Assembly (NCBI GenBank): GCA_964558705.1
Contig: CAZLFC010000004.1
Span: 1-38,404, forward strand
Reading direction: 5' to 3'
Origin: an uncultured Dehalococcoidales bacterium
GTDB taxonomy: Bacteria > Chloroflexota > Dehalococcoidia > Dehalococcoidales > GCA-2688105
Length of the DNA: 38,404 nt
Shown: piece after piece, positions 14,662 to 30,202 of the stretch
Position numbering within the stretch: position 1 is the first letter of the stretch
Layout: every line of letters starts with the position of its first letter
Translations under genes and position numbers: made by a program
Notes under the pieces: generated by a model
What the model was told of the DNA's origin: nothing
The model's database searches: none
What the model saw: only the letters and a program-made list of their open reading frames with translations

Positions 14662-14791
14662 CTAATCGCTACCAGCATTGGCTGAGAACGTTATCTCCAA
14701 TCCCAATTATAGCCCCTGCTAACAAATAGTTCAAAGGAAATAATTCCCCCCGGGCAGGGTAAAGCAAAACTTAACAAAATACCTAGCCGAA

Positions 14792-14824: not shown

Positions 14825-14911
14825 GAGCGCAAACTAAATTAGGTCAGGGGACGGATGAAGCAACAACCATTGAGTGTTAAGCTGAGGATGTAAGGAGAAA
14901 AACAACAGGGG

Positions 14912-15274
14912 GTGATAGAAATGCAGAAACCAATCGCTTCAGAAACACAAGGTAAAGGTTATCTCGAAGTCACAACAATGATTGAGGAGTTAGAGAAGGA
15001 TTTACCGGAAAAACCGGCTCCAGTAGTAGAAAGAAAAGCACCGGCCGGTAAAGAGGCTATTCTGGAAATTCTGGGTAAAGCCGCTGATGACCCCAAGTTC
15101 CTCGCCCGCTTAGCCGAGAACCCAATCAAGGTACTCGAAGAGTACCATTTAACCGTAGAGGAAAAGGCGGCTCTGGCTACAGGCGACCTGCGCCGCATAG
15201 AAAAATGGGTCGGCAAACTGGACGAGCGGCTGAGCACCTGGATATGGTGCCGTCTCCAGCAGGAGAAATGGTAA
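14912..15274 (+). CDS. Small protein whose C-terminal roughly 60 aa are paralogous to the FdhA C-terminal extension
   Basis: GTG 14912 or ATG 14921 (aggag upstream). The C-terminus is FLARLAENP..LT.EEKAALATGDLRRIEKWVGKLDERL...QEKW. By my manual alignment, about 40/62 residues are identical to the last 62 aa of the 17190..20138 ORF. Confidence 0.6.
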   Translation: MIEMQKPIASETQGKGYLEVTTMIEELEKDLPEKPAPVVERKAPAGKEAILEILGKAADDPKFLARLAENPIKVLEEYHLTVEEKAALATGDLRRIEKWVGKLDERLSTWIWCRLQQEKW

Positions 15275-15319
15275 TCGCCACCGCAATTTGCCACCGCGAA
15301 TACCAAAAGGAGAAACAAA

Positions 15320-15877
15320 ATGGCTGGTAAAAACGGAGGACGGCTAACCAGAGCAGAGGCAGAGGGGGTATCCTACAAACTTCCCGATGGTGAACAGAGT
15401 AAGGTTTTTGAAGAAGGCTTCCGCCCCCTCCGCGATGAGCCCGGTGCGTTACTGGAAATGCTGTACCTGGCACAGGAGAGCTTCGGTTGCCTCCCCAAAG
15501 CAGTCCTGGGCTGGATAGCCCAGGAGGCCAAGATACCCCGCAGTGAGGTCTTCTCAACAGCAACCTTTTATTCCCTCTTCTCCCTGAAGCCGGAAGCCAA
15601 GTATATCATCAGAGCCTGTGATTGCCTGTCCTGCTATCTTAACGGAGGTAAAGTGGCATTAGCCGCTATTCGTGATGCGGCAGGCATACCGGAAGGAAAA
15701 ACGGCAAGTGAGGACAGTCTTTTTTCACTTGAGACTGTCTCCTGCCTCGGCCTTTGCGACCAATCACCGGCAATAATGATTAACCAGGATAGATACGGGC
15801 TACTTGATGCTGACAAAGCTCGCCACATTATTGCCAGTCTGCGAAGCAAAGAATCCATTAAGGAAGGCAACCAATGA
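15320..15877 (+). CDS. nuoE: NuoE/HndA-like [2Fe-2S] subunit (FdsG-like) of a NAD-linked formate dehydrogenase
   Basis: Thioredoxin-like 2Fe-2S Cys pattern (CDCLSC ... CLGLCDQSP). An aggag RBS is present. The stop overlaps the next ATG (ATGA). Confidence 0.8.
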   Translation: MAGKNGGRLTRAEAEGVSYKLPDGEQSKVFEEGFRPLRDEPGALLEMLYLAQESFGCLPKAVLGWIAQEAKIPRSEVFSTATFYSLFSLKPEAKYIIRACDCLSCYLNGGKVALAAIRDAAGIPEGKTASEDSLFSLETVSCLGLCDQSPAIMINQDRYGLLDADKARHIIASLRSKESIKEGNQ

Positions 15878-17193
15878 ACGAGAAAGTAGCTTACAAAAAC
15901 ATTGGCAAACTGGATTCGGAAACCCTTCAAGGCTACCTGGGCAGTGGTGGCTACAAAGTGCTGCGGAAACTGGTGAAGGAGAAAACTCCGTCTCAAGTAA
16001 TTGAGGAAATTAAGCAGAGCGGTCTCCGCGGCTGTGGCGGCGCCGGTTTTCCCACCGGGGTTAAATGGGAATTCGTGGCGCAGACCACCGCGACACCGAA
16101 ATATGTAGTCTGCAACGCCGATGAAGGGGAACCGGGCACATTTAAAGATAGAGCCATCTTAGAACAGGACCCCCATCTGCTCATTGAAGGAATGGCTACC
16201 GCCGGCTTTGCCGTTGGTGCCGAGACCGGCTATATCTATGTAAGAGGAGAATATACCCTGGCCTGGAAGCACTTAAGGCAGGCTATCGACGAAGCCTATG
16301 AGAATAATATCCTGGGCGACGGTATATTCGGCAGCCGGGTGAATTTCCATATAAAGTTGCGCCGCGGTGCCGGCAGTTACATCTGCGGCGAGGAAACCGC
16401 GTTAATCGAGTCGCTGGAAGGCAAGAGAGGCATACCCCGCCTCAGACCCCCCTACCCCACCACCCACGGTTTATGGGGACAGCCCACTCTGGTCAACAAT
16501 GTGGAGACACTGGCGCGGGTCCCCGTCATTATGGAAAAAGGAGCCGGGTGGTACCAGGACCTGGGCAGAGGCGAGACTGCCGGAACCAAATTGTACTGTA
16601 TCAGCGGCCACATCCTTAAACCCGGTGTCTATGAGCTGCCTATGGGAGTAACCGCCCGCGAACTGATTTACGAGCATGGCGGCGGCATCAAGAATAATAA
16701 AAAGTTGAAGGCATTCAGCCCCGGCGGTATATCCAGCGGCATATTACCAGCCGAAATGGTTGACATCTCCCTGGACTACGCCCCCCTGGCTGAGGCCGGT
16801 TCTATGCTTGGCTCCGGGGCAATGATAGTAATGGATGAAACAACCTGTATGGTAGATATGGTATTACGTGCCTCACACTTCTTCGTTCACGAGTGCTGCG
16901 GCGAGTGCACCCCGTGTCGCGTCGGCAACATCAGAATAGAGCGACTCCTGACCAACATCGCCAACGGACAAGGCTCCTGGGACGATGTTCAGCTACTGCA
17001 AGAACTCGGTGAGCGCATGCGCATCGACTCTCGCTGCGGTCTGGGACAATCGGCAGCTCTTCCCTTCTTGAGCTCCCTGACTCACTTTGAAGAGGAATTC
17101 CGCGCTCATGTAGAGGCGAAGAAATGCCCCGCCGGAGTTTGCTCAATCGCACCTGTGGCTGCCCCGTATCAGCCGGAGGAGGTGACCATATGA
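15874..17193 (+). CDS. nuoF: NuoF-like NAD(H)/FMN/[4Fe-4S] subunit (FdsB-like)
   Basis: GLRGCGGAGFPTGVKW, an FMN/NADH site (NADEGEPGTFKDR) and a 4Fe-4S motif (ECCGECTPCR). An ATGA overlap occurs at both ends. Confidence 0.88.
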   Translation: MNEKVAYKNIGKLDSETLQGYLGSGGYKVLRKLVKEKTPSQVIEEIKQSGLRGCGGAGFPTGVKWEFVAQTTATPKYVVCNADEGEPGTFKDRAILEQDPHLLIEGMATAGFAVGAETGYIYVRGEYTLAWKHLRQAIDEAYENNILGDGIFGSRVNFHIKLRRGAGSYICGEETALIESLEGKRGIPRLRPPYPTTHGLWGQPTLVNNVETLARVPVIMEKGAGWYQDLGRGETAGTKLYCISGHILKPGVYELPMGVTARELIYEHGGGIKNNKKLKAFSPGGISSGILPAEMVDISLDYAPLAEAGSMLGSGAMIVMDETTCMVDMVLRASHFFVHECCGECTPCRVGNIRIERLLTNIANGQGSWDDVQLLQELGERMRIDSRCGLGQSAALPFLSSLTHFEEEFRAHVEAKKCPAGVCSIAPVAAPYQPEEVTI

Positions 17194-20138
17194 CAATGGC
17201 AACTCAAGAGAAAACCATAACCATCAGTATCGACAATCAGCCGGTAAAGGCGGCACCGGGAGCCAGTATCCTGGAAGCCGCCCAGGCAGCGGGAATCCAT
17301 ATTCCTACCCTGTGTCACCACCCCAAACTCTCAGTGGTAGGTTCCTGCCGGGTCTGTATGGTAGCCGTGGAAGGGATGAAAGGGGTGGTACCATCCTGCG
17401 CCACTCCCATCCGCGAGAGGATGGTAATCAAAACCGATACTCCGGAAGTCCTGGCCGCCAGGAAGATGGCGGTAGAACTGTTATTGTCGACTCACCCCTT
17501 GAATTGTAATGAATGCGATTCCAGCGGGAAGTGCGAGCTTCAGGCACTGGCTACCGAACTGGGCATTGAAACTCCCAGATTCTCCCGCGATGAAGAACGA
17601 CAGCCCATAGACGACAGGCATCCCTTCATTCTCTACGACCCCAATAAGTGCATCCTGTGCAGTCGTTGTGTCCGTGCCTGCCGTGAGATAGCCGTCAATG
17701 ATGTCTTGGGCATCAGCAACAGAGGCGGCGGGTCAATCATCTCCACCTTTTTCGAGGAGTCAATGGTCAGCGTCGGCTGTCTGTCCTGCGGCGAATGCGT
17801 CAGTGTTTGTCCTACCGCCGCCCTGACCGAAAAGCCGGGCTTCTCCATTGAGCCATCCACCGAGGCTAAAATAACCAAGACCACCTGCCCCTGGTGCGGG
17901 GTCGGCTGCACCATCGAACTTCACACCGAAGGCAACAAGGTGGTCAAGGTTACCTCACCACCCGACGCCCCCACCAATAAAGGCAGCCTCTGCGTCAAAG
18001 GTCGCTACGGCTACGAGTTTATCAATCACCCCAGCCGGCTCACCAAGCCGCTGATTAGAGTGAAACCTAAAGATGGCGGGGCGTACCACGAAGAAACCTG
18101 GCAGACCGATTTCCGCGAAGCCAGCTGGGATGAGGCGCTGGAACTGGTAGCCAAACGACTGTCCGAAATCAAGGACAAGTTTGGCAGCGAAAGCCTGGCC
18201 GGAATCAGCTCCGCCAAGTGCACCAATGAAGACAACTATCTGATGCAGAGATTCGTGCGGGAAATAATGGGCAATAACAATATTGACCATTGTGCCCGAC
18301 TTTGCCACGCTTCCACCGTGGTAGGCGCCATCGCCGCCTTTGGCAGCGGCGCCATGAGCAACTCCATTGATGATATTGCTATGGCTGATTCTCTCCTGAT
18401 AATCGGTTCCAATACAACCGAGTGCCATCCGGTTATCGGCAGCGTTGTTAAGCAGTCCGTCAGGTTCAGGGGAACGAAACTTATCGTGGCTGACCCCCGC
18501 CACATCCAGCTCACCGACCACGCCGCCATACACCTGCGTCACAAACCGGGGACCGATGTCGCCCTGCTCAACGGACTGATGCATGTCATCATCAAAGAGG
18601 GTCTGGCCAACGAAACCTTTATTAAAGAGCGCACCGAAGGCTTTGACGAACTAAACCAGGTAGTTGAAAACTACACGCCGGAGGTCGTGGAGAAAATAAG
18701 CGGCGTTGCCCAGGAAGACCTTATCAAAGCCGCCCGCGTATTCGGTCAAGCCGAAAAAGCATGCATTATTTACAGCATGGGCATAACGCAGCATACTACC
18801 GGCACCGACAATGTTAAAAGCGTGGCCAACCTCCTGCTTCTCACCGGCAACATCGGCCGGGAAGGTACCGGCTTCAGCCCGCTACGCGGACAGAATAATG
18901 TCCAGGGGGCTTGCGACCTGGGAGCATTACCGAATGTCCTCCCCGGCTACCAGGCGGTTAACAATCCGGAAAGCAGAGGAAAATTTGAAGCAGCCTGGCA
19001 CTGCCAGCTCGGTGATACTCCGGGAATCACCATGACGGAGATGCTTCCGGCCGCCCACGAAGGCAAGATAAAGGCAATGTACATCGTGGGGGAGAACCCT
19101 CTGCTCAGTGAACCTAACACCGAGCACGCCAGAGAATCGTTGAAAAGGCTGAATTTCCTGGTAGTCCAGGATATCTTCCCCTCGGAAACGGTCTGGCTGG
19201 CTGACGTTGTCCTGCCGGCGGCATGCTTTGCCGAGAAAGAAGGCACCTTCACCAGCACCGACCGGCGCGTCCAGAGAGTGCGGCAAGCGGTCACACCGCC
19301 GGGCGAAGCCCGCGATGACTGGGAGATAACCTGCCAGCTGGCGGAAAAGATGGGACACGACTTCAGCTACACCAGTGCCGAACAGATAATGGATGAAATC
19401 GCTGCTCTGACACCTATCTACGGCGGTGTCCACTATAACCGCCTGGACGGTACCGGCTTGCAGTGGCCCTGCCTTGACGATAACCACCCGGGCACTCCCT
19501 TCCTGCACAAGGACAAGTTCAGCCGTGGACTGGGCAAGTTCCACGCTTTAGAGTACATCCCTCCCGATGAGTCGATTTCTAAAGAGTTTCCCATGGTACT
19601 TACCACCGGACGAGTCCTGGAGCACTGGCACACCGGAACAATGAGTCGGCGCGCCGCTCCATTGCAGGAACTCTACCCGAAAGGTTTAGCCGAAATCCAT
19701 CCCAAGGATGCTGAGCGACTGGGCGTCTGGGAAGGTGAGATGATAACCATCACCTCAGACAGGGGCAAGATAGAAGCCAAGGCTCACATCACGGAAAAAT
19801 CAGCCCCCGGTCTTGTTTTCATGTCCTTCCACTGGCATGAAGCGCCCGCCAATATCCTCACCAACCCGGCGGTTGACCCGGTGGCCAAGATTCCCGAATA
19901 CAAGGTGTGTGCCGTCAAACCGGTGCTCGCGGTGCTTGACAGAGCGATACAGGATAATGCCTTCCTGGCCCAGTTAGCCGAGAACCCCGCGGAGGCGCTC
20001 AAGAGCTATGACCTCACCGCCGAAGAGAAGGCGGCCCTGGCTACCGGTGACATCCGCAGAATAAAGTCATGGGTCGGCGAACTCGACGAGAGAGTGGAGT
20101 CCTGGCTTATTGCCCGGCTGGCACAAGAAAAATGGTAA
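17190..20138 (+). CDS. fdhF: Formate dehydrogenase alpha subunit with a NuoG-like FeS N-terminus, a Mo/W-bisPGD catalytic domain (Cys type) and a roughly 70-aa C-terminal extension
   Basis: The start is set at ATG 17190 (ggaggaggtg RBS, ATGA overlap with the nuoF stop). There is an N-terminal 2Fe-2S plus 4Fe-4S Cys clusters. The active-site region HCARLCHASTV has a TGC Cys codon at 18303..18305 where selenoproteins have TGA. RGQNNVQGACDLG is also present. The extra C-terminal domain spans 19924..20138. Confidence 0.88.
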   Translation: MTMATQEKTITISIDNQPVKAAPGASILEAAQAAGIHIPTLCHHPKLSVVGSCRVCMVAVEGMKGVVPSCATPIRERMVIKTDTPEVLAARKMAVELLLSTHPLNCNECDSSGKCELQALATELGIETPRFSRDEERQPIDDRHPFILYDPNKCILCSRCVRACREIAVNDVLGISNRGGGSIISTFFEESMVSVGCLSCGECVSVCPTAALTEKPGFSIEPSTEAKITKTTCPWCGVGCTIELHTEGNKVVKVTSPPDAPTNKGSLCVKGRYGYEFINHPSRLTKPLIRVKPKDGGAYHEETWQTDFREASWDEALELVAKRLSEIKDKFGSESLAGISSAKCTNEDNYLMQRFVREIMGNNNIDHCARLCHASTVVGAIAAFGSGAMSNSIDDIAMADSLLIIGSNTTECHPVIGSVVKQSVRFRGTKLIVADPRHIQLTDHAAIHLRHKPGTDVALLNGLMHVIIKEGLANETFIKERTEGFDELNQVVENYTPEVVEKISGVAQEDLIKAARVFGQAEKACIIYSMGITQHTTGTDNVKSVANLLLLTGNIGREGTGFSPLRGQNNVQGACDLGALPNVLPGYQAVNNPESRGKFEAAWHCQLGDTPGITMTEMLPAAHEGKIKAMYIVGENPLLSEPNTEHARESLKRLNFLVVQDIFPSETVWLADVVLPAACFAEKEGTFTSTDRRVQRVRQAVTPPGEARDDWEITCQLAEKMGHDFSYTSAEQIMDEIAALTPIYGGVHYNRLDGTGLQWPCLDDNHPGTPFLHKDKFSRGLGKFHALEYIPPDESISKEFPMVLTTGRVLEHWHTGTMSRRAAPLQELYPKGLAEIHPKDAERLGVWEGEMITITSDRGKIEAKAHITEKSAPGLVFMSFHWHEAPANILTNPAVDPVAKIPEYKVCAVKPVLAVLDRAIQDNAFLAQLAENPAEALKSYDLTAEEKAALATGDIRRIKSWVGELDERVESWLIARLAQEKW

Positions 20139-20183
20139 TCAAACTCCAGGACATAAGATAAATCGGAAAACCAGACACGAGGT

Positions 20184-20220
20184 AGCACGCACCGGGTTAT
20201 TCAGCGGTGCGTGCTATTTT
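20184..20220 (+). terminator. Intrinsic terminator of the fdh operon
   Basis: An 11-bp perfect stem (agcacgcaccg / cggtgcgtgct) has a 10-nt loop and is followed by atttt. Confidence 0.7.
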
Positions 20221-20250
20221 GTGATAGGCAGGCGATAAAACCCTGTGGCA

Positions 20251-20292
20251 AATTTAGTGTAAAATTATTTGACAATTTAGTGTAAAGTTATT
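20251..20292 (+). promoter_or_regulatory. Two 19-bp direct repeats bracketing a TTGACA box upstream of the rpoN-like gene
   Basis: aatttagtgtaaaattatt (20251..20269) and aatttagtgtaaagttatt (20274..20292) match at 18/19. TTGACA at 20269..20274 lies between them. No convincing -10 was found at 17-bp spacing. Confidence 0.3.
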
Positions 20293-20310
20293 ACTCTAGT
20301 TAGTGATACG

Positions 20311-21432
20311 ATGTTAGACAGAGTACCCTCATTGAAGATGAACCAGACCCAGTCCATGCAAATGCGGCAGGAGCAAAGACAAATCCTCCGCATGGAACAA
20401 GCCAACCTGCTGGAAATGCCCGAGGACGACTTTCACAAGCTTATCAGCGAGATAGAGCGTGAGCCCCTTTTTCAGAAGTTATACGGTAAGGAAAAACTAA
20501 TCCGCTACCAGAGACTGCCCAGAACCGATATGTCCTCCAGTTTCTACGCAATCAAAGAAGAGGTGGTAGCCGATAAAGGTTCGCTGGATGTTGAATCCCT
20601 TCTGCAGAATAAGGAGCACATTGTCCGGCTAATACAGCAGCTGGGCATGGAGACATTCAATAAGTATTTTTTGTTCCCGGAATCAGGGATGACTCCTGAA
20701 GAAATCGCTAGAGAATGCGACCTGGACATACCGGAGGTCCAGAAGATAAATAGCCTTATTGATGATTTCTCGGTCAGGAGTGAATTCTATCATCCGTCGA
20801 ATATTACCTCAGACAGCATCCGCTACTCCAAAATCGCCTCGGTAGATAAAGATGACAAGGGATTTATTATCGGCTATTTTTCAGCGCCTCTCGCCCGGGG
20901 TCGTTATGCCATTGATTATGAAAAATTTGAAGAGTTAAAGACGGCTGGTAAACTCGCTGACACTGAAATCAAGGAAGCCAGGCAGCTATTCAAAAAACTG
21001 GAACTGATTAATAGCCGCAAGGACACCATAACTCAAATCCTGCAAAATATCATTGACAAGCAGGCACTATACCTAGAGTCCGGCAACTCTAAGTCACTCT
21101 TACCTCTCAGCCAAAAGGAACTGGCTAAAAATATCGAGGTCGCTCCCAGTTCAATAAGTCGTGCTATTAGAGGCAAAAGTATCGAAACTCCCTGGGGTAA
21201 AGAAGTCCCTCTGAAAAACTTCTTCCCTAGGCCCAAGCGATTTAGAATGGAACTGCTCAGGCAACTGCTGGAAACCGACCAAGAGCTTTCCTCAGACGAG
21301 GCAATCCGCAACAAACTCCAGGAAAAATTTGGCGTAGCAATCTCACGTCGTTCGGTAGCCAACCTGAGAAAAGAGCTTAAATTCCCGGCGGTTCATAGAA
21401 GCCACCGTACCGCTGGAGGTAAATTAAAATGA
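20311..21432 (+). CDS. rpoN: Short, divergent sigma-54 (RpoN)-like factor
   Basis: Gln/Leu-rich region-I-like N-terminus (MNQTQSMQMRQEQRQILRMEQANLLEM). C-terminal HTH (QKELAKNIEVAPSSISRAIRGKSIETPWGKEVPLKNFF) and RpoN-box-like ISRRSVANLRKELKFP. The start is ATG 20311 or 20338. The stop overlaps the next ATG (ATGA). Confidence 0.7.
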   Translation: MLDRVPSLKMNQTQSMQMRQEQRQILRMEQANLLEMPEDDFHKLISEIEREPLFQKLYGKEKLIRYQRLPRTDMSSSFYAIKEEVVADKGSLDVESLLQNKEHIVRLIQQLGMETFNKYFLFPESGMTPEEIARECDLDIPEVQKINSLIDDFSVRSEFYHPSNITSDSIRYSKIASVDKDDKGFIIGYFSAPLARGRYAIDYEKFEELKTAGKLADTEIKEARQLFKKLELINSRKDTITQILQNIIDKQALYLESGNSKSLLPLSQKELAKNIEVAPSSISRAIRGKSIETPWGKEVPLKNFFPRPKRFRMELLRQLLETDQELSSDEAIRNKLQEKFGVAISRRSVANLRKELKFPAVHRSHRTAGGKLK

Positions 21433-23384
21433 GCATTGTCTACACCGAGAGAGAAAAATGTACCGGGTGCCTTGCCTGTGTTCGTAACTGCCCAGCCAAG
21501 GCAATCAGAATAAGAGAGGGCAAGGCTGAGGTAATAAAGGAGCGCTGTATTGACTGCGGCAACTGTGTTCAGATATGCATGGCTAAAGCGAAACACCTAG
21601 AGAGCGACATTGGATTGGTCTGGCAGCTATTGGGACAGCAGCAGCCGATAATCGCGATGCTATCCGCCCCCTTCCCCGCCGCTTTCCCTGAAATTCGACC
21701 GGGGCAGCTGGTAGCCGCTTTGAAAAAACTGGGTTTTAGCGAGATTATGGAGGATTCCTTCGGGGCTGAACTGATCTGCGGTGAATATGCCCGTCTTTTT
21801 AAGGAAAAAGCTGATAAAAATATTATCTCATCTACCTGCCCGGCGGTAGTGTCATACATTGAGAGATTTCACCCCCAGCTACTCAATAATCTAGCACCCA
21901 TTGTCTCACCTATGATAGCCATGGGTAGAGTGATTAAGCATCGTTATAATCCACAGGCTAAGGTAGTCTTCATTAGCCCTTGCGTAGCCAAGATAGCCGA
22001 GGCTAAAGATGAGAAGGTTGCCGGCATAGTGGATGCAGTACTGACCTTTGCCGAAATTAAAGAAATGTTAGCGGCTAAAGAGATTGCCCTTGCATCTCAG
22101 GACGAAGAGCAACTCACGGGTCCCAAACCAAACCTGGGGCGTCTGGTCGCCATATCGGGTGGCTTACTCAAGGCAGCCAATCTCTCCGACGATATTCTAG
22201 CCAATGAAATTATAAATGCCTGCGGTCATGAATACACACCTCATATCCTTCGCGAGTTTTCCGAAGGCAACATCACTGCCAAACTCATCACCATGTGTTT
22301 TTGTGAAGGTTGTATTGATGGTCCGGTTATTGATAACAACCTGAGCGTCTTTAAACGAAGAGAGATAATCAGCAATTACACCTTGAGCCAGGCAGACCCT
22401 GTTCAAACCGAGAAGGACGTTCAGGTATATGCTGACATTGACCTCAGCCGTAAATTTACCAATAGAAGTGTCGACCTACCTACTCCCAGCGAAGAAGATA
22501 TTCAAAGGATTTTAGAGGAGATTGGCAAGGTAGACCCCAGCTTCCATATGAACTGCGGCGCCTGCGGCTACGGCGGCTGCCGAGAACTGGCTATTGCCGT
22601 CTGCCAGGGTCTGGCTGAGGTTAATATGTGCTGGCCATATGTACTAAATAAGTTAAGAGCCACCCAAGAAGAACTAATCCAGGCTGAGAAGCTGACCTCG
22701 CTGGGTCAACTGGCCGCCTCCATCGCCCACGAGGTCAATAACCCCCTGGCCGGCGTCCTTATCTATACCCAGTTGATGGCTAAAAAAATAAACGACGATA
22801 AGCTCGCCAAAGAGGTCGCCCTCGACTACCTGTCCAAGATGGACTCCGAACTTACCCGCAGCACCAGACTAATCCGTAACCTCCTCGACTTCGCCCGGCA
22901 GTCTACGCCTACCCTCAGAGAAGTGAATGTCAACGAGGTCATCACCCGAGCTATAGAACTGGCCGCCCACTCGGCTGAACTGGGTAACGTCCAGATGATA
23001 AAGGAGCTCGACCCTGCCCTGCCCAGGCTTATGGCCGACTTCGACCAGCTCCAGCAGGTCTGCACCAACCTCATACTGAACGCCATCCAGGCAATGCCGG
23101 AAGGAGGTATATTGACCCTCCGCACCTCAACCCCACCCGATAATGACAGCCAGCTCAAGATTGAGGTACAGGATACCGGCCTCGGCATCTCCCCGGAGAA
23201 CATGCGCCGGCTGTTCACTCCCTTCTTTACTACCAAGAAGAAAGGCAAGGGCGTAGGCCTCGGTCTGGCAGTGGCCTATGGAATTGTCCAGCGCCACAAA
23301 GGTAGAATAGAAGTTCAGAGCAGGGAAGGAGAGGGTACCACCTTCATCATCTATTTGCCGCTGCGTTATGAAGAAAAAAGATAA
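21429..23384 (+). CDS. Sensor histidine kinase with 2x[4Fe-4S] ferredoxin, an [FeFe]-hydrogenase-like H-domain, a Cx2Cx4Cx16C FeS motif, then HisKA and HATPase
   Basis: Ferredoxin motifs are CTGCLACVRNCP and CIDCGNCVQIC. The Fe_hyd_lg_C-like core is (SAPFPAAF...LGFSEIMEDSFGAEL...SSTCPAVVSYIERFHPQLL...ISPCVAKIAEA...VDAVLTFAEI...MCFCEGCIDGP). NCGACGYGGCRELAIAVCQGLAEVNMC lies at 22554..22631. The H-box is AASIAHEVNNPL, and the ATPase has G-boxes. Confidence 0.8.
   Translation: MSIVYTEREKCTGCLACVRNCPAKAIRIREGKAEVIKERCIDCGNCVQICMAKAKHLESDIGLVWQLLGQQQPIIAMLSAPFPAAFPEIRPGQLVAALKKLGFSEIMEDSFGAELICGEYARLFKEKADKNIISSTCPAVVSYIERFHPQLLNNLAPIVSPMIAMGRVIKHRYNPQAKVVFISPCVAKIAEAKDEKVAGIVDAVLTFAEIKEMLAAKEIALASQDEEQLTGPKPNLGRLVAISGGLLKAANLSDDILANEIINACGHEYTPHILREFSEGNITAKLITMCFCEGCIDGPVIDNNLSVFKRREIISNYTLSQADPVQTEKDVQVYADIDLSRKFTNRSVDLPTPSEEDIQRILEEIGKVDPSFHMNCGACGYGGCRELAIAVCQGLAEVNMCWPYVLNKLRATQEELIQAEKLTSLGQLAASIAHEVNNPLAGVLIYTQLMAKKINDDKLAKEVALDYLSKMDSELTRSTRLIRNLLDFARQSTPTLREVNVNEVITRAIELAAHSAELGNVQMIKELDPALPRLMADFDQLQQVCTNLILNAIQAMPEGGILTLRTSTPPDNDSQLKIEVQDTGLGISPENMRRLFTPFFTTKKKGKGVGLGLAVAYGIVQRHKGRIEVQSREGEGTTFIIYLPLRYEEKR
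22674..23311. repeat. Copy A of a 638-bp perfect direct repeat (DHp plus most of the CA domain of the hydrogenase-like HK)
   Basis: Line-by-line comparison shows 22674..23311 is identical to 23960..24597 (offset 1286 bp). Similarity continues with mismatches to about 23370/24656. Confidence 0.9.
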
Positions 23385-23416
23385 GACGACAATCAGCTAA
23401 TTAAGCTAAGGTGTTA

Positions 23417-24679
23417 ATGGAACAGTCTATAACAATTAAACCAACCCTAAAAAACACCCTGCAACGCTGGAAAGAAATTGTGGTAGCCAAAGCTAACGAA
23501 TGGGCACAGCGAAGCGACACCAGAGGCATACGAAGCCCTCATTTCTGGATAATCACGGTTTTAATAGCCTTCGGCGCGCTGAATTACTATCTGGACCAGA
23601 CTCCCCTGATTAACCTGCCACTGTTTAACCACAGCTTTTTCACCAGTGTCCACGACGTACATCGGACATTATTCTTCATTCCCATAATCTACGCTGCTCT
23701 GGTATTCAGGGTACGGGGAAGCCTGATTGCTTCACTCGCCTTCCTCTGCGTGGTGCTACCACGCGCTTTGCTATTTTCCCCTTACCCCGACCCGTTACTT
23801 AGACCTATTCTATTTGTCATCTTTGCCGCCATTATCAGTACACTTATGGCGTCACACCTTAATCAAGTCGAAAAGGAAAGAAGCGATCGTGTCAAGCTGA
23901 GCGAAGCTTACCAGAAACTTAGCGAATATCACCAGCGCCTGAAAGAAAGCCAGGAACAGCTAATCCAGGCTGAGAAGCTGACCTCGCTGGGTCAACTGGC
24001 CGCCTCCATCGCCCACGAGGTCAATAACCCCCTGGCCGGCGTCCTTATCTATACCCAGTTGATGGCTAAAAAAATAAACGACGATAAGCTCGCCAAAGAG
24101 GTCGCCCTCGACTACCTGTCCAAGATGGACTCCGAACTTACCCGCAGCACCAGACTAATCCGTAACCTCCTCGACTTCGCCCGGCAGTCTACGCCTACCC
24201 TCAGAGAAGTGAATGTCAACGAGGTCATCACCCGAGCTATAGAACTGGCCGCCCACTCGGCTGAACTGGGTAACGTCCAGATGATAAAGGAGCTCGACCC
24301 TGCCCTGCCCAGGCTTATGGCCGACTTCGACCAGCTCCAGCAGGTCTGCACCAACCTCATACTGAACGCCATCCAGGCAATGCCGGAAGGAGGTATATTG
24401 ACCCTCCGCACCTCAACCCCACCCGATAATGACAGCCAGCTCAAGATTGAGGTACAGGATACCGGCCTCGGCATCTCCCCGGAGAACATGCGCCGGCTGT
24501 TCACTCCCTTCTTTACTACCAAGAAGAAAGGCAAGGGCGTAGGCCTCGGTCTGGCAGTGGCCTATGGAATTGTCCAGCGCCACAAAGGTAGAATAGAGGT
24601 ACAAAGCAGGGAAGGAGAGGGTACCACCTTCATTATCTATTTGCCGCTGCGTTATGAAAAACATGAAGAAAAAGATTAA
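23417..24679 (+). CDS. Membrane sensor histidine kinase (DUF4118-like 4-TM sensor, HisKA, HATPase)
   Basis: ATG 23417 (taaggtg RBS); the track start is GTG 23411. The hydrophobic N-terminus is homologous to the N-terminus of the 12019..13971 kinase. The transmitter is identical to that of the preceding kinase. Confidence 0.8.
   Translation: MEQSITIKPTLKNTLQRWKEIVVAKANEWAQRSDTRGIRSPHFWIITVLIAFGALNYYLDQTPLINLPLFNHSFFTSVHDVHRTLFFIPIIYAALVFRVRGSLIASLAFLCVVLPRALLFSPYPDPLLRPILFVIFAAIISTLMASHLNQVEKERSDRVKLSEAYQKLSEYHQRLKESQEQLIQAEKLTSLGQLAASIAHEVNNPLAGVLIYTQLMAKKINDDKLAKEVALDYLSKMDSELTRSTRLIRNLLDFARQSTPTLREVNVNEVITRAIELAAHSAELGNVQMIKELDPALPRLMADFDQLQQVCTNLILNAIQAMPEGGILTLRTSTPPDNDSQLKIEVQDTGLGISPENMRRLFTPFFTTKKKGKGVGLGLAVAYGIVQRHKGRIEVQSREGEGTTFIIYLPLRYEKHEEKD
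23960..24597. repeat. Copy B of the 638-bp perfect direct repeat
   Basis: See copy A. The antisense track ORFs 22826..23248 and 24112..24534 translate identically, which is consistent. Confidence 0.9.
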
Positions 24680-26006
24680 AATTCTTGTCGTTGATGATGA
24701 AGCCATCATCCGCGAGTCACTCCGTGACTGGCTAAGCGACACCGGATACGAAGTCCTTGTCGCCGAGAACGGCCTCCAGGGTCTGGGAATTATTGAGAAG
24801 GAGAGGCCGGGTATTGCCATTGTTGATCTGGTAATGCCTGGAATGGACGGGATTGAATTACTGAAGAGAGCCAAGGAAATTTCTCCTAACACCGACATAA
24901 TCATCATCACTGCCTACGCCAGTATCCCCACAGCTATTGCCGCCATAAGGTCCGGCGCCTATGACTACATTGAGAAGCCCTTCTGCCCGGAAAAGGTAGA
25001 GCTATTAATTGAGAAACTGATGGAGCATCAACAACTCATCGAGGAGAATATTTCCCTGCACCAGAAACTGGAGGAGCGTTACCGGTTCGAAAATATCATT
25101 GCCAAGAGTCCCAGGATGCAGCAGATAATCGAGGTGATTAAAGTCGTCGCCAAGAGTAATGCCACGGTGTTGATTACCGGCGAAAGCGGCACCGGGAAGG
25201 AACTGGTCGCACGAGCCGTCCACTCCCAGAGCTACCGCAAGGATAAGACATTTGTTGCCGTTAGTTGTGCTGCCCTGCCCGAAACCCTCCTCGAAAGCGA
25301 GCTGTTCGGGCATGAGAGAGGCTCTTTTACCGGTGCTCACGTCCAACGGAAAGGAAAATTTGAAGCTGCCAACCGGGGCAGTCTCTTCCTGGATGAGGTT
25401 GGCGAGATGAGTGCCAATATTCAGGTTCACCTGCTCAGGGTACTGGAAGAAAAAGAGTTCACCAGGGTTGGCGGGAATGAGCTAATCAAGGTCGATGTCA
25501 GAGTCATCTCAGCGACCAATAAAGATATGAAACAGGCGATAGCCAACGGGCAATTCCGTGAAGACCTTTACTACCGACTTAATGTGGTTACTATCGAATT
25601 GCCTCCCTTGAGAGAGCGAAAAGAAGACATTCCTCTCTTAGCCGAGCATTTCCTGAAAAAGTTCGCCGTGGAAAATCAAAAAGAGATTACCGGCTTTTCT
25701 CCTAAGGCTAATGATTTTCTGCTGAACTATGATTGGCCGGGTAACGTCCGGGAACTGGAAAATGCTATTGAAAGGGCAGTTATCCTGGCCAAAGATAATT
25801 ATATTGAGGTTGCCGACCTGCCCCAGGAAAGCCTGACAAAGACTCACTCGTCTGTACCCGGTGAAAGCCTTGAAAAGATTGAGAAAAATCACATCCAGAA
25901 CACACTCAAAGAAACCGACGGCAACTTAAGTAAAGCCGCCAAAATCCTGGGGATTTCCCGGGTAACTCTTTACAATAAAATTAAATTATATGATTTGAGC
26001 AAATAG
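24654..26006 (+). CDS. NtrC-family sigma-54-dependent response regulator (REC, AAA+ and Fis-type HTH)
   Basis: REC (ILVVDDE..VDLVMPGMDG..KPF), Walker A GESGTGKE and a GAFTGA-type loop (GSFTGA). Also ESELFGHE, R-finger and sensor II regions, and a C-terminal HTH (AAKILGISRVTLYNKI). It overlaps the HK stop. An alternative ATG lies at 24663. Confidence 0.9.
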   Translation: MKNMKKKIKILVVDDEAIIRESLRDWLSDTGYEVLVAENGLQGLGIIEKERPGIAIVDLVMPGMDGIELLKRAKEISPNTDIIIITAYASIPTAIAAIRSGAYDYIEKPFCPEKVELLIEKLMEHQQLIEENISLHQKLEERYRFENIIAKSPRMQQIIEVIKVVAKSNATVLITGESGTGKELVARAVHSQSYRKDKTFVAVSCAALPETLLESELFGHERGSFTGAHVQRKGKFEAANRGSLFLDEVGEMSANIQVHLLRVLEEKEFTRVGGNELIKVDVRVISATNKDMKQAIANGQFREDLYYRLNVVTIELPPLRERKEDIPLLAEHFLKKFAVENQKEITGFSPKANDFLLNYDWPGNVRELENAIERAVILAKDNYIEVADLPQESLTKTHSSVPGESLEKIEKNHIQNTLKETDGNLSKAAKILGISRVTLYNKIKLYDLSK

Positions 26007-26016
26007 ATAAGATGAT

Positions 26017-26040
26017 AACTGATTAAATCTTTTACAATCA
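26017..26040 (+). promoter_or_regulatory. Candidate upstream activator site (imperfect dyad TGATT-N11-AATCA), copy 1
   Basis: aactgattaaatcttttacaatca starts 83 nt upstream of the -24 GG. It matches 28358..28381 at 21/24, and that element sits at 82 nt from its own -24 GG. Confidence 0.35.
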
Positions 26041-26063
26041 AGTCTCCATTAAAGCAGAAACTC

Positions 26064-26098
26064 AGGCTATCCTGGCAATTCAGGATAGCCTTCTCTTT
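26064..26098 (+). terminator. Hairpin plus T-tract after the ntrC-like gene, abutting the sigma-54 promoter
   Basis: aggctatcctg-gcaatt-caggatagcct is an 11-bp perfect stem followed by tctctttt. Its arms are conserved in the paralogous hairpin at 28403..28432. Confidence 0.55.
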
Positions 26099-26114
26099 TG
26101 GCAAGATAATTGCT
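26099..26114 (+). promoter_or_regulatory. Sigma-54 (-24/-12) promoter P1
   Basis: TGGCAAGATAATTGCT has GG at 26100-26101 and GC at 26112-26113 (exact GG-N10-GC, TGGCA-N6-TTGC). It lies 26 nt upstream of ATG 26139, with ggaggtg between them. Confidence 0.75.
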
Positions 26115-26138
26115 CTCAAACAGCGCGGAGGTGATAAG

Positions 26139-28334
26139 ATGAAACCTATATTGATAGTAGAAGATGAGGATATCATGAGAGAGTCCCTGCAGGACTGGCT
26201 GACTGACGTCGGCTATAAAGTGGAGACCGCCGAGGAGGGAGAGAAAGCCCTGGAAGCCATCGATGAGAAGGACTTCGGCATTGTTATCCTCGACCTGAAG
26301 TTACCGGGTAAAGACGGCCTCGAGGTGCTTAGAGAAGCTAAGGCGAAAAGACCCCAGCTTAAGGGTATCATTATTACCGCTTACCCTTCAGTCCAAACAG
26401 CTATAGACGCCATGAAGGAGGGAGCCGTAGATTACCTGCCCAAGCCCTTCGACCTCAATGAACTGGAAAAATTGGTCCGGGAGACCCTGGGGCCAATCCA
26501 GGTGGAGATAAAACCAAAGAAGGCTGCCGGAAAAGCCAAGGCTGAACCTGCCGAAATCGAGGAAGTTATCGATGAGGTAACCGGGAAGGTACACCTGCCT
26601 CCCTGTCAGATAGCCTGTCCCATCGGAGAGCCGATTCAGCGCACCAATGCGATGATTTCACACCTGCCCCTTGACACCGAGAAGGCTATCCCTCAGATAA
26701 CAAAAATAGGCGATATAATTTATGAGAAGAATCCTCTATTCACAATATGCAGCTATATCTGCGGGCTTTGTGAAAAAGAATGCAACTACAAAGACCACAC
26801 GGGAGCGATAAGAAGAAAGATGCTTAAACGGTTCCTCACCGATTACTACCTGCCCCATCTGGAAACCAAGCCCCCCTTCCCCCTCCCTACCAGGGAAAAA
26901 GTTGCCGTAATTGGCGGTGGCCCCGCGGGGTTAATGTCCGCCTATATGTTAAGTAAAGACGGCTACCGGGTGACTATCCTGGAAAAAAGTCTCGAATTAG
27001 GCGGAGCCCTGAGATACATTCCTCAATACCGCCTTCCGAAGGATATTGTCGATTCCACTTTAAACAACCTGGTAAGAATTGCCCATATTGATGTCAGATT
27101 CGGAGTAAGCATGGGCAGTGGCGAGAAAACCCTGGATGACCTCAGGAATGAAGGTTGCCAAGCCGTATTCATCGCCACCGGCACTCCAGCTCCCCGACCG
27201 CTCACCTTTGAAGGCAAACCGGTACCGGGAGCCGACCTGGAAGGAGTTGCGTTCGGGTTATATCTTCTCATCGACGTAAACCAGAGCAAGGTCTCCCATC
27301 AGCTATTACGCCGGCTTTTCGGTGATAAGAGAGTAATCGTGGTAGGCGGCGGCAATGTAGCCTTCGATGCCGCCAGAACCGCCCGGCGGCTTGGCGGAGA
27401 TGTTACTCTTGTCTGCCTCGAAAATGAGAATAAGTCCTCCAAGGATGGAATTCCTGCCGATGTTGAGGAGATAAAAGGTGCCCGTGAAGAAGGCATCAAA
27501 ATATGCTACAGCCGGGGTGTAGAAGAGATAATCGGCAAGGATGGCAAGTTCACCAAAATAAAATGTCCCCGCTGCACCTCAGTTTTCGACGAAAAAGGAT
27601 TCAATCCTAAATTTGACCGAAGTGATTTTATATACCTTGAGGGCGACGTGTTATTGACAACCATAGGACAGGGTCCGGAGCATTCGTTCTTCCAGCAGGA
27701 AGGCTTACTTAATGAGCGAGGCAGATCTGATACCGACCCGCTTACCCTTATGAGCAATCGCCAAGAAGGAGTCTTCATCGGTGGTGATGTGAGGCGACTG
27801 GGCTTTGCTGCCGAAGCGATGAGAGACGGCATAGTAGCCGCCGAGTCTATAGACCGTTACCTGAAGGGTGAGGAACTCAAGGAAGGCCGGGAAAAGCAGT
27901 TTGAAAGCGCGGCTATCCCCACGCTCATGGAGTACAAGCCTCAACCTGAAGCAGAATGGGTACTGCTGGAAGAGAGGCTTAACTTTGAACTGTTTGAAAA
28001 AGGCTTCACCCTGGAGGAAGCAATAGAAGAAGCGACAAGATGCCTGTATTGCGGCCCGTGCAAGAGCTGCAAAGCATGCGTCGTCCTCGAGCTGCAACCT
28101 GAGATACCCAAAATTGAAGTCAATCAGGATATATGCAGTGGCTGTGGCATCTGTGTAGGCTTATGCAGCTATGATGCCATCCAGCTAAGGGCAGATAACG
28201 GCAAGGCAGTAGCCACCATAGACGATATTAAATGCAAGCGATGCGGAGTATGCAGTGCCGCCTGCCCGTCTAACGCCATCGGCATTGGGCACGCCACTTC
28301 TGAGAACATCATAACTGAAATCCCCGACTGGTAA
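26139..28334 (+). CDS. Receiver domain fused to a GltD/NfnB/SfrB-like FeS-flavoprotein oxidoreductase with a C-terminal 2x[4Fe-4S] ferredoxin domain
   Basis: REC spans aa 1-120 (VEDE..LDLKLPGKDG..ITAY..KPF). An FeS N-domain follows (PPCQIACP, CSYICGLCEKEC). There are two Rossmann motifs (VAVIGGGPAGL, VIVVGGGNVAFDAA). The C-terminus has CLYCGPCKSCKAC, CSGCGICVGLC and CKRCGVCSAACP. Confidence 0.8.
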   Translation: MKPILIVEDEDIMRESLQDWLTDVGYKVETAEEGEKALEAIDEKDFGIVILDLKLPGKDGLEVLREAKAKRPQLKGIIITAYPSVQTAIDAMKEGAVDYLPKPFDLNELEKLVRETLGPIQVEIKPKKAAGKAKAEPAEIEEVIDEVTGKVHLPPCQIACPIGEPIQRTNAMISHLPLDTEKAIPQITKIGDIIYEKNPLFTICSYICGLCEKECNYKDHTGAIRRKMLKRFLTDYYLPHLETKPPFPLPTREKVAVIGGGPAGLMSAYMLSKDGYRVTILEKSLELGGALRYIPQYRLPKDIVDSTLNNLVRIAHIDVRFGVSMGSGEKTLDDLRNEGCQAVFIATGTPAPRPLTFEGKPVPGADLEGVAFGLYLLIDVNQSKVSHQLLRRLFGDKRVIVVGGGNVAFDAARTARRLGGDVTLVCLENENKSSKDGIPADVEEIKGAREEGIKICYSRGVEEIIGKDGKFTKIKCPRCTSVFDEKGFNPKFDRSDFIYLEGDVLLTTIGQGPEHSFFQQEGLLNERGRSDTDPLTLMSNRQEGVFIGGDVRRLGFAAEAMRDGIVAAESIDRYLKGEELKEGREKQFESAAIPTLMEYKPQPEAEWVLLEERLNFELFEKGFTLEEAIEEATRCLYCGPCKSCKACVVLELQPEIPKIEVNQDICSGCGICVGLCSYDAIQLRADNGKAVATIDDIKCKRCGVCSAACPSNAIGIGHATSENIITEIPDW
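26142..26580. repeat. Copy A of a 439-bp near-identical direct repeat (REC domain plus linker)
   Basis: 26142..26531 is identical to 28534..28923 (390 bp, offset 2392). There are 2 mismatches (26532 and 26557) before divergence at 26581. Confidence 0.9.
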
Positions 28335-28402: not shown

Positions 28403-28438
28403 AAGGCTATCCTGAATCGTCAGGATAGCCTTTTCTTA
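28403..28438 (+). terminator. Hairpin plus T-tract after the REC-GltD gene, abutting sigma-54 promoter P2
   Basis: aaggctatcctga-atcg-tcaggatagcctt is a 13-bp stem followed by ttctta. Confidence 0.55.
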
Positions 28439-28454
28439 TGGCAAGAAAATTGCC
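28439..28454 (+). promoter_or_regulatory. Sigma-54 (-24/-12) promoter P2
   Basis: TGGCAAGAAAATTGCC has GG at 28440-28441 and GC at 28452-28453. It lies 27 nt upstream of ATG 28480, the same geometry as P1. Confidence 0.75.
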
Positions 28455-28479
28455 TTTAAACAGTGTGGAGGTGATAAAA

Positions 28480-29571
28480 ATGGAAAAGCTAGCAGTCTTA
28501 AAGGAAGATAAAGTAAAAGGAGGTGAAAAAGTGAAACCTATATTGATAGTAGAAGATGAGGATATCATGAGAGAGTCCCTGCAGGACTGGCTGACTGACG
28601 TCGGCTATAAAGTGGAGACCGCCGAGGAGGGAGAGAAAGCCCTGGAAGCCATCGATGAGAAGGACTTCGGCATTGTTATCCTCGACCTGAAGTTACCGGG
28701 TAAAGACGGCCTCGAGGTGCTTAGAGAAGCTAAGGCGAAAAGACCCCAGCTTAAGGGTATCATTATTACCGCTTACCCTTCAGTCCAAACAGCTATAGAC
28801 GCCATGAAGGAGGGAGCCGTAGATTACCTGCCCAAGCCCTTCGACCTCAATGAACTGGAAAAATTGGTCCGGGAGACCCTGGGGCCAATCCAGGTGGAGA
28901 TAAAACCAAAGAAGGCTGCCGGAGAAGCCAAGGCTGAACCTGCCGAAACCGAGGAAGTTATCGATGAGGTAAAGGTTGAAGAGATTATAGCTATAGCTCC
29001 CGAGGAAGTCCCGGACCATCTGGCGCAGGGCAAGACCCAATGTGACGCCGGCCAATATCTGAAAGCTCTAAAGGAGTTTGAGGCTGTCCTCAACGCTGCC
29101 CCGGGTAGCATCGAAGCCCGAGTCTGGATACGAAAGGCAAAAGAAGCCCTAGCCAAGCCAGAGGCTGAAGCCGTAGCTGAAGGAGAGGAAGCCGCCGCAG
29201 AAGGCAAAATCAAGGAGTGCGTTTGGATGAAGATGGGTATGGTAGCCTACCGCATCTGCACCAACGACTATGACTGCACCACCTGCGATTTCGACCAGAT
29301 GATGCAGGAGAAGATGGCCAGTGGTGATGCCCCGGAACTTGAAGCTGCGCTGGAGAAATTCAAGGCGCTACCCGGTAACCAGAGGCTTTGCCGCTATGCC
29401 CTTAAGGGTGATGTATCACACCGAATTTGCAGCCGCCTGTTCCAGTGCAACGCCTGCGAATTTGGTCAAATGATGGAGGATGCTCTCCAAAGAAAGCTGG
29501 ATAAGCTGGAAGCACGCCGAGCTGCTCTGCTCAAAAAAGAGCAAAAACAAAAAGCTGAAACCGAAGCATAA
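28480..29571 (+). CDS. Response regulator: REC, TPR-like linker, twin C-x12-C-x5-C-x2-C modules and a coiled-coil tail
   Basis: The start is set at ATG 28480 (ggaggtg RBS, matching P1 geometry). An alternative GTG lies at 28531 (aaggaggtg RBS). The track ATG 28438 lies inside the -24 element. The REC is identical to that of the 26139 ORF. The C-terminus has CVWMKMGMVAYRICTNDYDCTTCDFDQMMQE and CRYALKGDVSHRICSRLFQCNACEFGQMMED. Confidence 0.75.
   Translation: MEKLAVLKEDKVKGGEKVKPILIVEDEDIMRESLQDWLTDVGYKVETAEEGEKALEAIDEKDFGIVILDLKLPGKDGLEVLREAKAKRPQLKGIIITAYPSVQTAIDAMKEGAVDYLPKPFDLNELEKLVRETLGPIQVEIKPKKAAGEAKAEPAETEEVIDEVKVEEIIAIAPEEVPDHLAQGKTQCDAGQYLKALKEFEAVLNAAPGSIEARVWIRKAKEALAKPEAEAVAEGEEAAAEGKIKECVWMKMGMVAYRICTNDYDCTTCDFDQMMQEKMASGDAPELEAALEKFKALPGNQRLCRYALKGDVSHRICSRLFQCNACEFGQMMEDALQRKLDKLEARRAALLKKEQKQKAETEA
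28534..28972. repeat. Copy B of the 439-bp REC repeat
   Basis: See copy A. Confidence 0.9.
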
Positions 29572-29704: not shown

Positions 29705-30202
29705 ATGGACACCCAAAAAAGGAGGATTCTGCTGGTAGAAGATGAAACCGTGATGCGCGAAGGCATGCGTGACTGGCTCATGGAGAATGGTTACGATGTC
29801 GAGAGCGCTGAGACCGGAGAAGAAGCCTTACAGAGAATCAGGAAGGAAGACTTTGGCATTATCGTCCTTGATTTAAAGTTACTGGGCATTGATGGACTGC
29901 AAGTATTCGAAAAAGCCAGAGAGCTTAAATCTGAAGCCAAAGGGATAATCATTACCGCCCATCCTTCGCCAGAAACGCAGGAAAAGGCACAAAAGCTGGG
30001 AGTCCTCGACTACCTGGTAAAACCTTTCAAGATTGAAAATCTGGAAAAGATAATCAGAGAGGTGCTGGGAGAACCAGAGAGAAAACTAACGGGCAAAGAA
30101 TATCTCTGGCTGGAACTTAATAACTCTTCTTATCGACTCTGCACCAAAAACTATAAATATGACTCATATGCTTTCACGCAGGGGACCTATAAGATAGATT
30201 AA
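29705..30202 (+). CDS. Stand-alone receiver protein with a short Cys-depleted remnant of the C-x12-C-x5-C-x2-C module
   Basis: aggagg RBS. The REC is paralogous to the two upstream RECs (MREGMRDWLMENGY, LDLKL, ITAH, KPF). The tail KEYLWLELNNSSYRLCTKNYKYDSYAFTQ aligns to KECVWMKMGMVAYRICTNDYDCTTCDFDQ, with 3 of 4 Cys replaced by Tyr. Confidence 0.75.
   Translation: MDTQKRRILLVEDETVMREGMRDWLMENGYDVESAETGEEALQRIRKEDFGIIVLDLKLLGIDGLQVFEKARELKSEAKGIIITAHPSPETQEKAQKLGVLDYLVKPFKIENLEKIIREVLGEPERKLTGKEYLWLELNNSSYRLCTKNYKYDSYAFTQGTYKID

Follow-up and report, generated by a model that had tools for sequence, protein, structure and literature searches.

Two adjacent histidine kinase genes, HK1 and HK2, of an uncultured Dehalococcoidales bacterium share a transmitter module that is identical base for base over 638 bp, and the sensors fused to this module are unrelated. 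The genes lie on the 38,404-nucleotide contig CAZLFC010000004.1 (GenBank assembly GCA_964558705.1). The whole of this 38.4-kb contig was analysed and is called the window here; its best genome matches are all Dehalococcoidales or Dehalococcoidia metagenome-assembled genomes (MAGs). The kinases belong to a cassette with the order sigma54-like gene, HK1, HK2, NtrC-type activator and then receiver-effector genes with sigma54-type promoter motifs (Table 1). We infer that the identity was probably produced by gene conversion between real tandem paralogous transmitters. The observations behind this reading are the identity itself, the domain content of the tract, the clustering of the paralogs within genomes and the behaviour of independent assemblies.

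An earlier note on this DNA, made from the sequence alone, had claimed base-for-base identity of the segments listed as copies 1 and 2 of the transmitter repeat, and direct comparison bears this out over 638 bp. The identical run is maximal, with an offset of 1286, and is extendable at neither end. Self-BLAST revealed a slightly longer homology, 22664-23376 against 23950-24661, with 98.9% identity over 713 bp, seven mismatches and one gap. The tract makes up a complete transmitter composed of the DHp and CA domains; its top NCBIfam matches are AtoS and ZraS, both below the equivalog cutoffs, and the H-box SIAHEVNNPL is present in the translations of HK1 and HK2 alike. At the 5' edge the similarity stops sharply, and the sequence upstream is unrelated except for a loosely similar coiled-coil linker. 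On the 3' side, the mismatches and different C-termini described earlier were found again: four substitutions at 23312, 23315, 23318 and 23348, all at third codon positions and synonymous, are followed by the C-terminal residues YEEKR in HK1 and YEKHEEKD in HK2, each directly before the stop codon.

The abrupt change at the 3' end of the tract is significant. None of the 212 codons inside the tract differs between the two kinases, versus 3 of the next 13 codons (Fisher P = 1.5e-4, with one further differing codon that straddles the tract boundary excluded from the count). A GENECONV-style permutation of the run length of identity, the type of test that the earlier note had proposed, gave P = 2e-4 for the window pair on the sites variable among 20 related transmitters. 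Chance is therefore excluded as the cause of the 638-bp identity, and the synonymous changes 3' of the tract are an older divergence outside the latest conversion tract.

Comparison with related loci, designated by L numbers, supports the same reading. Most of them possess a single kinase between the sigma54-like and NtrC-type genes, which is of the HK1 type in L001, L004-L007 and L026 and of the HK2 type in L008 and L086. Both kinases are found in three lineages, namely the window, L105 (together with the partial L156 from another sample) and L002 (together with L159 and L160, which come from other assemblies and are 99.9% identical to L002). The layout of L105 is the same as that of the window, and L002, L159 and L160 add one receiver gene between the kinases. 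The two transmitters of the window are 99% identical over the homology unit and 100% over 638 bp, with a paralog synonymous divergence (dS) of about 0 in the tract; over the whole alignment the dS is 0.053, because non-homologous linker codons and the diverged tail are included. The corresponding pairs are 95.2% identical in L105 (32 mismatches in 671 bp, paralog dS 0.18) and 88.1% identical in L002 (paralog dS 0.48). Against these within-genome values of 99%, 95% and 88%, the nucleotide identity between the transmitters of the window and their counterparts in L105 and L002 is only 76-78% (dS 1.27-1.78), so the look at orthologous loci suggested previously comes out in favour of concerted evolution. 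The flanking sensors and the sigma54-like and NtrC-type genes are 68-82% identical between lineages, the same level as the transmitters; between the window and L105, the flanking sensors and neighbouring genes are 77-82% identical.

In a codon neighbour-joining tree, the paralogs pair by genome and the transmitters do not group by sensor type. The bootstrap-type support, counted as the fraction of 200 resamplings that return each copy as the closest neighbour of the other, was 1.0 for both the window and L105 and 0.585 for L002. In addition, the mosaic of identical runs is significant in L002 (P = 5e-4). The clustering by genome in three lineages, together with the older divergence 3' of the tract, upholds the earlier claim of recent gene conversion or concerted evolution. 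The sharp 5' boundary, however, calls for another reading. The similarity ends at the same codon in all three lineages, at the start of the DHp sequence AEKLTSLGQ; the boundary is therefore an edge of homology, at the fusion of sensor and DHp domain, and not the end of a conversion tract.

Orphan 3' ends of transmitters were also observed between cassette genes, at 7041-7173 of L157 and at 12608-12811 of L002 (7723-7926 of L159). The 133-nt fragment of L157 follows the sigma54-like gene and is 91% identical to the HK2 tail of that same locus. These apparent relics of lost kinases indicate that kinase modules have been repeatedly gained and lost in the cassette. In L082 (6389-7108), an HK2 ortholog has an in-frame stop in its transmitter and is followed by a fragmented NtrC-type gene, which represents either a pseudogene or poor sequence.

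A second repeat, unlisted in the earlier note, is found in two receiver genes downstream of the kinases. The two copies are 98.9% identical over 454 bp by self-BLAST, with an exact 392-bp core at 26140-26531 in the first copy. The 120 bp on the 5' side of each copy are just 80% identical, and the effector parts of the two regulators are unrelated. As with the transmitters, the two receivers of one genome group together in the window, in L002 and even in L105, although 8 kb separates the copies there. Compared with the window, contig L155 shows the same T>C change at homologous sites of both receiver copies (26204 and 28596), reflecting either very recent strain-level co-conversion or the reuse of one node by the assembler. 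Tandem single-domain receiver genes 3' of related kinases are 79-85% identical within each locus (L083 2078-2813, L084 5372-6107, L001 14265-15009 and L003 15176-15919), and concerted evolution of receiver paralogs may be general in this clade.

The assembly was judged from contigs alone. The exact NtrC-type protein is encoded on three further contigs and a fourth was matched by DNA, all of them 99.6-99.9% identical to the window. Each of the four has an end or a collapse at a transmitter or receiver repeat. L115 begins 57 nt before the 3' end of transmitter copy 2 and stops 175 nt into receiver copy 1. L153 has its first base at 23960, right where the transmitter repeat begins, and jumps from receiver copy 1 to copy 2 without the GltD-like body. 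L154 runs through window positions 13368-23376 and continues at 23950-26194, so that a single transmitter stands between the HK1 sensor and an HK2-type tail, the NtrC-type gene follows and the HK2 sensor is absent. L155 begins 39 nt inside the transmitter repeat and is colinear with the window across both receiver copies, which confirms their order. Contigs that break precisely at a repeat edge imply that the assembly graphs branch there, and thus that two different flanks exist in those samples too. The repeats are therefore a trouble spot for assembly, as had been anticipated, and the predicted hybrid that keeps the HK1 sensor and loses the HK2 sensor region has the exact sequence of L154, formed by deletion or collapse. 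Between strains, the repeat differs at 3-5 sites.

L154 encodes a 654-aa kinase with the HK1 sensor and the HK2 tail (8062-10026), and L153 encodes a 346-aa hybrid of receiver and Cys-rich protein (2180-3220) and lacks the GltD-like gene. Both contigs are 99.6-99.8% identical to the window. L153 and L154 are either true deletion variants, which recombination between perfect direct repeats of 392-638 bp would be expected to yield, or assemblies collapsed at about 6x coverage.

An assembly artefact is the alternative that survives best, although we regard it as unlikely. One collapsed repeat node could have been traversed twice, or an HK1-only and an HK2-only strain variant, each with its kinase between the sigma54-like and NtrC-type genes, could have been joined; two identical transmitters would then not occur together in any one genome. 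Relatives with HK1 only or HK2 only are common at this position, as listed above, and L154, at 99.6-99.8% identity, has precisely a one-kinase form. The independent contigs all break at the repeats, the related ENA assemblies have about 6x coverage judging by their contig names, and the HK2 sensor of the window was absent from any second assembly in the searches made; used alone as a protein query against other assemblies, it returned nothing above 77% identity. However, the window contains a distinct junction in which an HK1-type tail, with seven differences from the HK2 tail, leads through a short spacer into the HK2 start. This junction has no sequence in common with the rest of the locus, so it does not derive from a repeat-mediated mis-join, and joining two strains would have put a sigma54-like gene before the HK2 sensor. 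The start of L153 at the exact 5' repeat edge implies two alternative upstream sequences in that sample as well. Furthermore, the same tandem layout recurs in the separate assemblies of L105 and L002/L159/L160 with copies that are 5% and 12% divergent, and those of L105 and L002/L159 are too divergent to collapse. The HK1-HK2 spacer, aligned between the window, L105 and L002, is too short and too diverged to show that the junction arose only once.

A very recent tandem duplication, or a fresh transmitter copy fused de novo to the HK2 sensor, is in our judgement quite improbable. Zero differences over 638 bp do resemble a young duplicate, and histidine kinases commonly expand within a lineage while their sensors are shuffled (PMC1630713). 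Yet the homologous 3' tail is about 10% diverged, where a fresh duplicate would be identical throughout. L105 and L002 also have the HK2 sensor and the HK1-HK2 order, at a divergence equal to that of the flanking genes, and the fusion point falls at the identical codon in all three lineages. If a resident transmitter had been replaced by the copy of its neighbour, this would be gene conversion in effect. Purifying selection alone, maintaining the identity without DNA exchange, has next to no probability and was rejected on synonymous sites: transmitter motifs are conserved at the protein level, but the 212 codons contain no synonymous difference while the dS of orthologs exceeds 1.2.

Several points weigh against gene conversion between real tandem paralogs. 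The mosaic of identical runs is not significant in L105 (P = 0.14), the L002 pair is weakly supported (bootstrap-type 0.585), and the paralog dS of 0.48 in L002 equals the L105-L002 ortholog dS of 0.42-0.53. The near-identical L154 has one kinase and no HK2 sensor, and some populations may, partly or wholly, carry one kinase only. None of the independent contigs spans the junction of the HK1 tail and the HK2 sensor in this population. The 100% identity could in reality be about 99%, raised by de Bruijn node reuse or bubble popping.

On balance, we favour gene conversion and propose the following course of events. The transmitter would have been duplicated long ago, before the split of the three two-kinase lineages, and the copies, 1.3 kb apart, would have been homogenised repeatedly by RecA-type intrachromosomal gene conversion. 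The latest tract in the window would span at least 638 bp, from the fusion point of sensor and DHp to 23311, with the last ~65 bp keeping the older divergence. The two downstream receiver domains would have been homogenised likewise, and deletion between the direct repeats would be an expected side reaction. HK1 and HK2 should share their partner preference, since by established rules of two-component specificity the DHp helices and the alpha-1 helix of the receiver determine which partners are chosen; the earlier inference that both kinases address the same response regulators is reasonable on these grounds. With identical DHp surfaces both kinases would act in one pathway and phosphorylate the same partners, a many-to-one wiring, and HK1:HK2 heterodimers would be possible through the identical DHp, which is the dimer interface. 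The long tolerance of homogenisation argues that there is no selection to separate the outputs of HK1 and HK2. More tentatively, homogenisation might itself be selected, a possible though rather doubtful extension in which uniform transmitters and receivers would let one pool of H2/redox and membrane sensors, possibly as heterodimers, drive several receiver-effectors.

Table 1. Features of the window around the two kinases and the two repeats.
Feature	Position	Strand	Description
Formate dehydrogenase genes	15320-20138		NuoE-like, NuoF-like and fused NuoG/FdhA; FdhA equivalog 853 bits vs cutoff 666
Sigma54-like protein	20311-21432	+	short (373 aa), first gene of the conserved cassette; Pfam Sigma54_DBD E = 7e-23
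HK1	21429-23384	+	HydS-like [FeFe]-hydrogenase sensor (putative) fused to HisKA-HATPase_c transmitter, 651 aa
Transmitter repeat copy 1	22674-23311	+	DHp + CA, exact 638-bp tract
HK1 transmitter 3' tail	23312-23376	+	homologous to HK2 tail but diverged, 7 differences (1 gap) in 65 bp
HK2	23417-24679	+	membrane-anchored sensor (predicted) fused to the same transmitter, 420 aa
Transmitter repeat copy 2	23960-24597	+	identical to 22674-23311
NtrC/AtoC-type sigma54-dependent response regulator	24654-26006	+	start overlaps HK2 tail
Terminator-like hairpin	26064-26091
-24/-12 sigma54-type motif	26099-26114	+	TGGCAAGATAATTGCT, after the hairpin
Receiver repeat copy 1	26127-26580	+	ribosome-binding site and REC domain, in GltD-like fusion gene
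Receiver + GltD-like oxidoreductase	26139-28334	+	NAD(P)/FAD oxidoreductase with Fe-S domains, 731 aa
Terminator-like hairpin	28404-28431
-24/-12 sigma54-type motif	28439-28454	+	TGGCAAGAAAATTGCC, after the hairpin
Receiver + Cys-rich C-terminal domain	28480-29571	+	363 aa from ATG 28480; Pfam Response_reg alone
Receiver repeat copy 2	28519-28972	+	ribosome-binding site and REC domain, in Cys-rich receiver gene
Stand-alone receiver	29705-30202	+	165 aa; Pfam Response_reg; related alpha-1 helix

HK1 matched the Pfam families Fer4, Fe_hyd_lg_C (1.9e-47), FeS (PF04060), HisKA (6.7e-13) and HATPase_c (4.9e-28), and its N-terminal 405 residues are built like putative sensory [FeFe]-hydrogenases (HydS). 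Two [4Fe-4S] motifs are located at the N-terminus, where the Fer4 matches cover residues 4-54, followed by the H-domain motifs STCP at residue 135, PCVAK at residue 184 and MCFCEGC at residue 289, and by a Cx2Cx4Cx16C motif at residue 376, at the C-terminal end of the sensor. HK1 reads SSTCP and not TSCCP, so that the proton-relay cysteine (C299 of CpI) is replaced. No PAS domain was matched by Pfam in HK1, and the H-domain module is joined directly to HisKA; no hydE, hydF or hydG maturase gene was seen in the window. These motifs suggest that HK1 is an H2/redox sensor of the HydS type. In HK2, Pfam matched solely HisKA (1.2e-12) and HATPase_c (2.1e-28), and the HisKA scores of both kinases exceed the gathering score. 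The N-terminal ~180 residues of HK2 contain 3-4 hydrophobic segments in the hydropathy profile and no Pfam sensor domain, which points to input through a membrane sensor.

The most likely start of HK2 is ATG 23417, preceded by AAGGTG and corresponding to the 420-aa call P0001, and not GTG 23411. The called 420-aa protein occurs on the window contig alone in the protein collection, and exact-protein look-ups with HK1 (651 aa), the 422-aa GTG form of HK2 and the sigma54-like protein returned no matches. The same transmitter type, at 72-75% amino-acid identity, is also carried by kinases with PAS/GAF sensors; thus at least three sensor types, HydS-like, membrane and PAS/GAF, are found on one kinase core.

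The NtrC-type regulator downstream of HK2 matched Response_reg, Sigma54_activat (5.9e-74), AAA_lid_14 and HTH_8 in Pfam, and its GAFTGA loop is present as GSFTGA at residue 223. The two intergenic sigma54-type motifs each stand behind a terminator-like hairpin, 5' of a receiver-effector gene. Across the window, such motifs are not in excess (19 matches versus 18.7 expected from shuffles), and only the pair of intergenic sites, with their recurrence at related loci, carries weight. The motif 5' of the Cys-rich receiver gene is strongly conserved, as TGGCAAGAAAATTGCA, ahead of its orthologs in 13 related loci with coding DNA that is just 65-80% identical; the loci named with motif and hairpin are L001, L002, L004-L009, L026, L105, L156 and L157. 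Because of this conservation, the two receiver-effector genes are probably targets of the NtrC-type activator.

The first of these genes matched Response_reg, Pyr_redox_2, Fer4_20 and Fer4 in Pfam and resembles PRK12771 in NCBIfam. Orthologs of the second, the Cys-rich receiver gene, come after the NtrC-type gene in nearly all related loci. The alpha-1 signature (I/V)(I/M)RE(S/G)(L/M)xDWL is present in all four receivers of the locus and is absent from the unrelated LuxR-type regulator of the window, which fits a single kinase pool serving several receivers. Two pairs of Shine-Dalgarno sequence and start codon, ATG 28480 and GTG 28528, lie 48 nt apart at the beginning of the Cys-rich receiver gene (28468-28530); they give a leader or N-terminal extension of ~16 codons, which is conserved in related loci.

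The surroundings of the cassette in the window are ordinary chromosome, with genes for cobalamin salvage, an ABC transporter, a tRNA synthetase, RtcB, formate dehydrogenase and aldehyde:ferredoxin oxidoreductase; given this content, a phage or mobile-element origin is unsupported. In the sigma54-like protein, Sigma54_DBD is the only domain detected by Pfam, and the NCBIfam rpoN equivalog reached 88.6 bits versus a cutoff of 277, with the C-terminal part alone matched. A sigma54-like gene is also located upstream of the kinase in L001, L002, L004-L008, L026, L086 and L105. The cassette adjoins NAD-linked formate dehydrogenase genes here, and related cassettes adjoin formate dehydrogenase, group-3-type NiFe hydrogenase and Hdr/Mvh-like genes. 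The flanks of the cassettes in L157, L161 and L159 were seen to contain FdhA/FrhB, MvhD/FlpD, the small and large subunits of NiFe hydrogenase, and HycI protease or HdrA-like genes. Such neighbouring genes suggest that the cassette controls H2, formate and redox metabolism.

Some further observations concern the neighbouring DNA. A GC-rich hairpin with a T-run follows FdhA within 20182-20300, and the direct repeat ATTTAGTGTAAA, at 20252 and 20275, flanks TTGACA just 5' of the sigma54-like gene; the repeat with TTGACA may be a candidate operator or promoter. A 117-aa open reading frame at 14921-15274 (+), 5' of the formate dehydrogenase operon, closely resembles in its C-terminal half the C-terminal tail of FdhA (19950-20138). 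Both contain the pattern …LAENP…EEKAALATGD(L/I)RRI…W…RL(Q/A)QEKW, and the FdhA tail has a weak PF14407 match. In the aldehyde:ferredoxin oxidoreductase gene, the window and L153 differ by seven substitutions within 15 bp (35504-35518), the strains being 99.8% identical elsewhere.

Paralog gene conversion, sensor shuffling on a conserved kinase core and HydS-like sensors are each known separately. The tufA/tufB genes are an example of bacterial paralogs in concerted evolution. Long-lasting cases in which intrachromosomal gene conversion keeps bacterial paralogs evolving in concert have been surveyed (PMC6053082). The present locus resembles bacterial concerted evolution in that within-genome paralogs are closer than orthologs, the synonymous step is abrupt, and the pattern recurs in several lineages. 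Unlike such cases, homogenisation here is confined to a single module within multidomain signalling proteins whose N-terminal sensors are unrelated, and at the same locus it also affects the receiver, a second module that interacts with the first. The search for literature combining gene conversion with histidine kinases found no relevant case, and no description was found of module-restricted concerted evolution of the transmitter and receiver sides in one two-component cassette. Lineage-specific expansion of histidine kinases with sensor-domain shuffling has been described (Alm et al. 2006, PMC1630713). As in that model, one kinase core is placed on different sensors in soluble and membrane versions; however, the model ends in divergence and new roles, whereas the two genes here remain neighbours in one cassette and retain or acquire identical cores.

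The sensor of HK1 can be compared with HydS, the putative sensory [FeFe]-hydrogenases of groups C and D with the subclasses M2f and M2e (Land et al. 2020, PMC8163306). The defining features applied to HK1 were taken from that study, in which PAS marks the group C, M2f subclass. Like HydS, HK1 has two N-terminal [4Fe-4S] motifs, the H-domain and the Cx2Cx4Cx16C motif, and lacks the proton-relay cysteine, with STCP instead of TSCCP. Unlike HydS, it has no PAS domain, and the H-domain is fused directly to the HisKA/HATPase_c transmitter. Some [FeFe]-hydrogenases of group C1 have also been noted to contain HATPase_c (PMC11406978).

The wiring of KinA-E to Spo0F and of LuxN, LuxQ and CqsS to LuxU exemplifies many-to-one signalling. 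The present locus is similar in that two different sensors stand beside one NtrC-type regulator, and the same DHp would imply the same partners. It differs in that the shared specificity would come from DNA homogenisation and not from the retention of a few interface residues. After duplication, paralogs normally diverge at interface residues, which leads to pathway insulation (Nocedal & Laub 2022, PMC9208753), and the outcome here is the opposite. One practical consequence is that the repeats break or collapse short-read metagenome assemblies and drop a kinase or a regulator, so that a single MAG is no sound basis for the gene content of this locus.

For the organism, the locus points to a cassette of sigma54-like protein, HydS-type kinase and NtrC-type regulator beside formate dehydrogenase and hydrogenase genes in uncultured Dehalococcoidales. 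For the family, the textbook course of duplicated two-component systems is divergence at a few interface residues against crosstalk, and this locus shows the reverse: the interface modules of two kinases and two receivers would be kept alike by DNA exchange in at least three lineages, with sensors and effectors that are unrelated. The locus offers a natural setting in which to ask when it suits a cell that its kinases have partners in common. If homogenisation is itself selected, it would be a DNA-level mechanism that blocks the insulation which paralogous two-component systems normally evolve.

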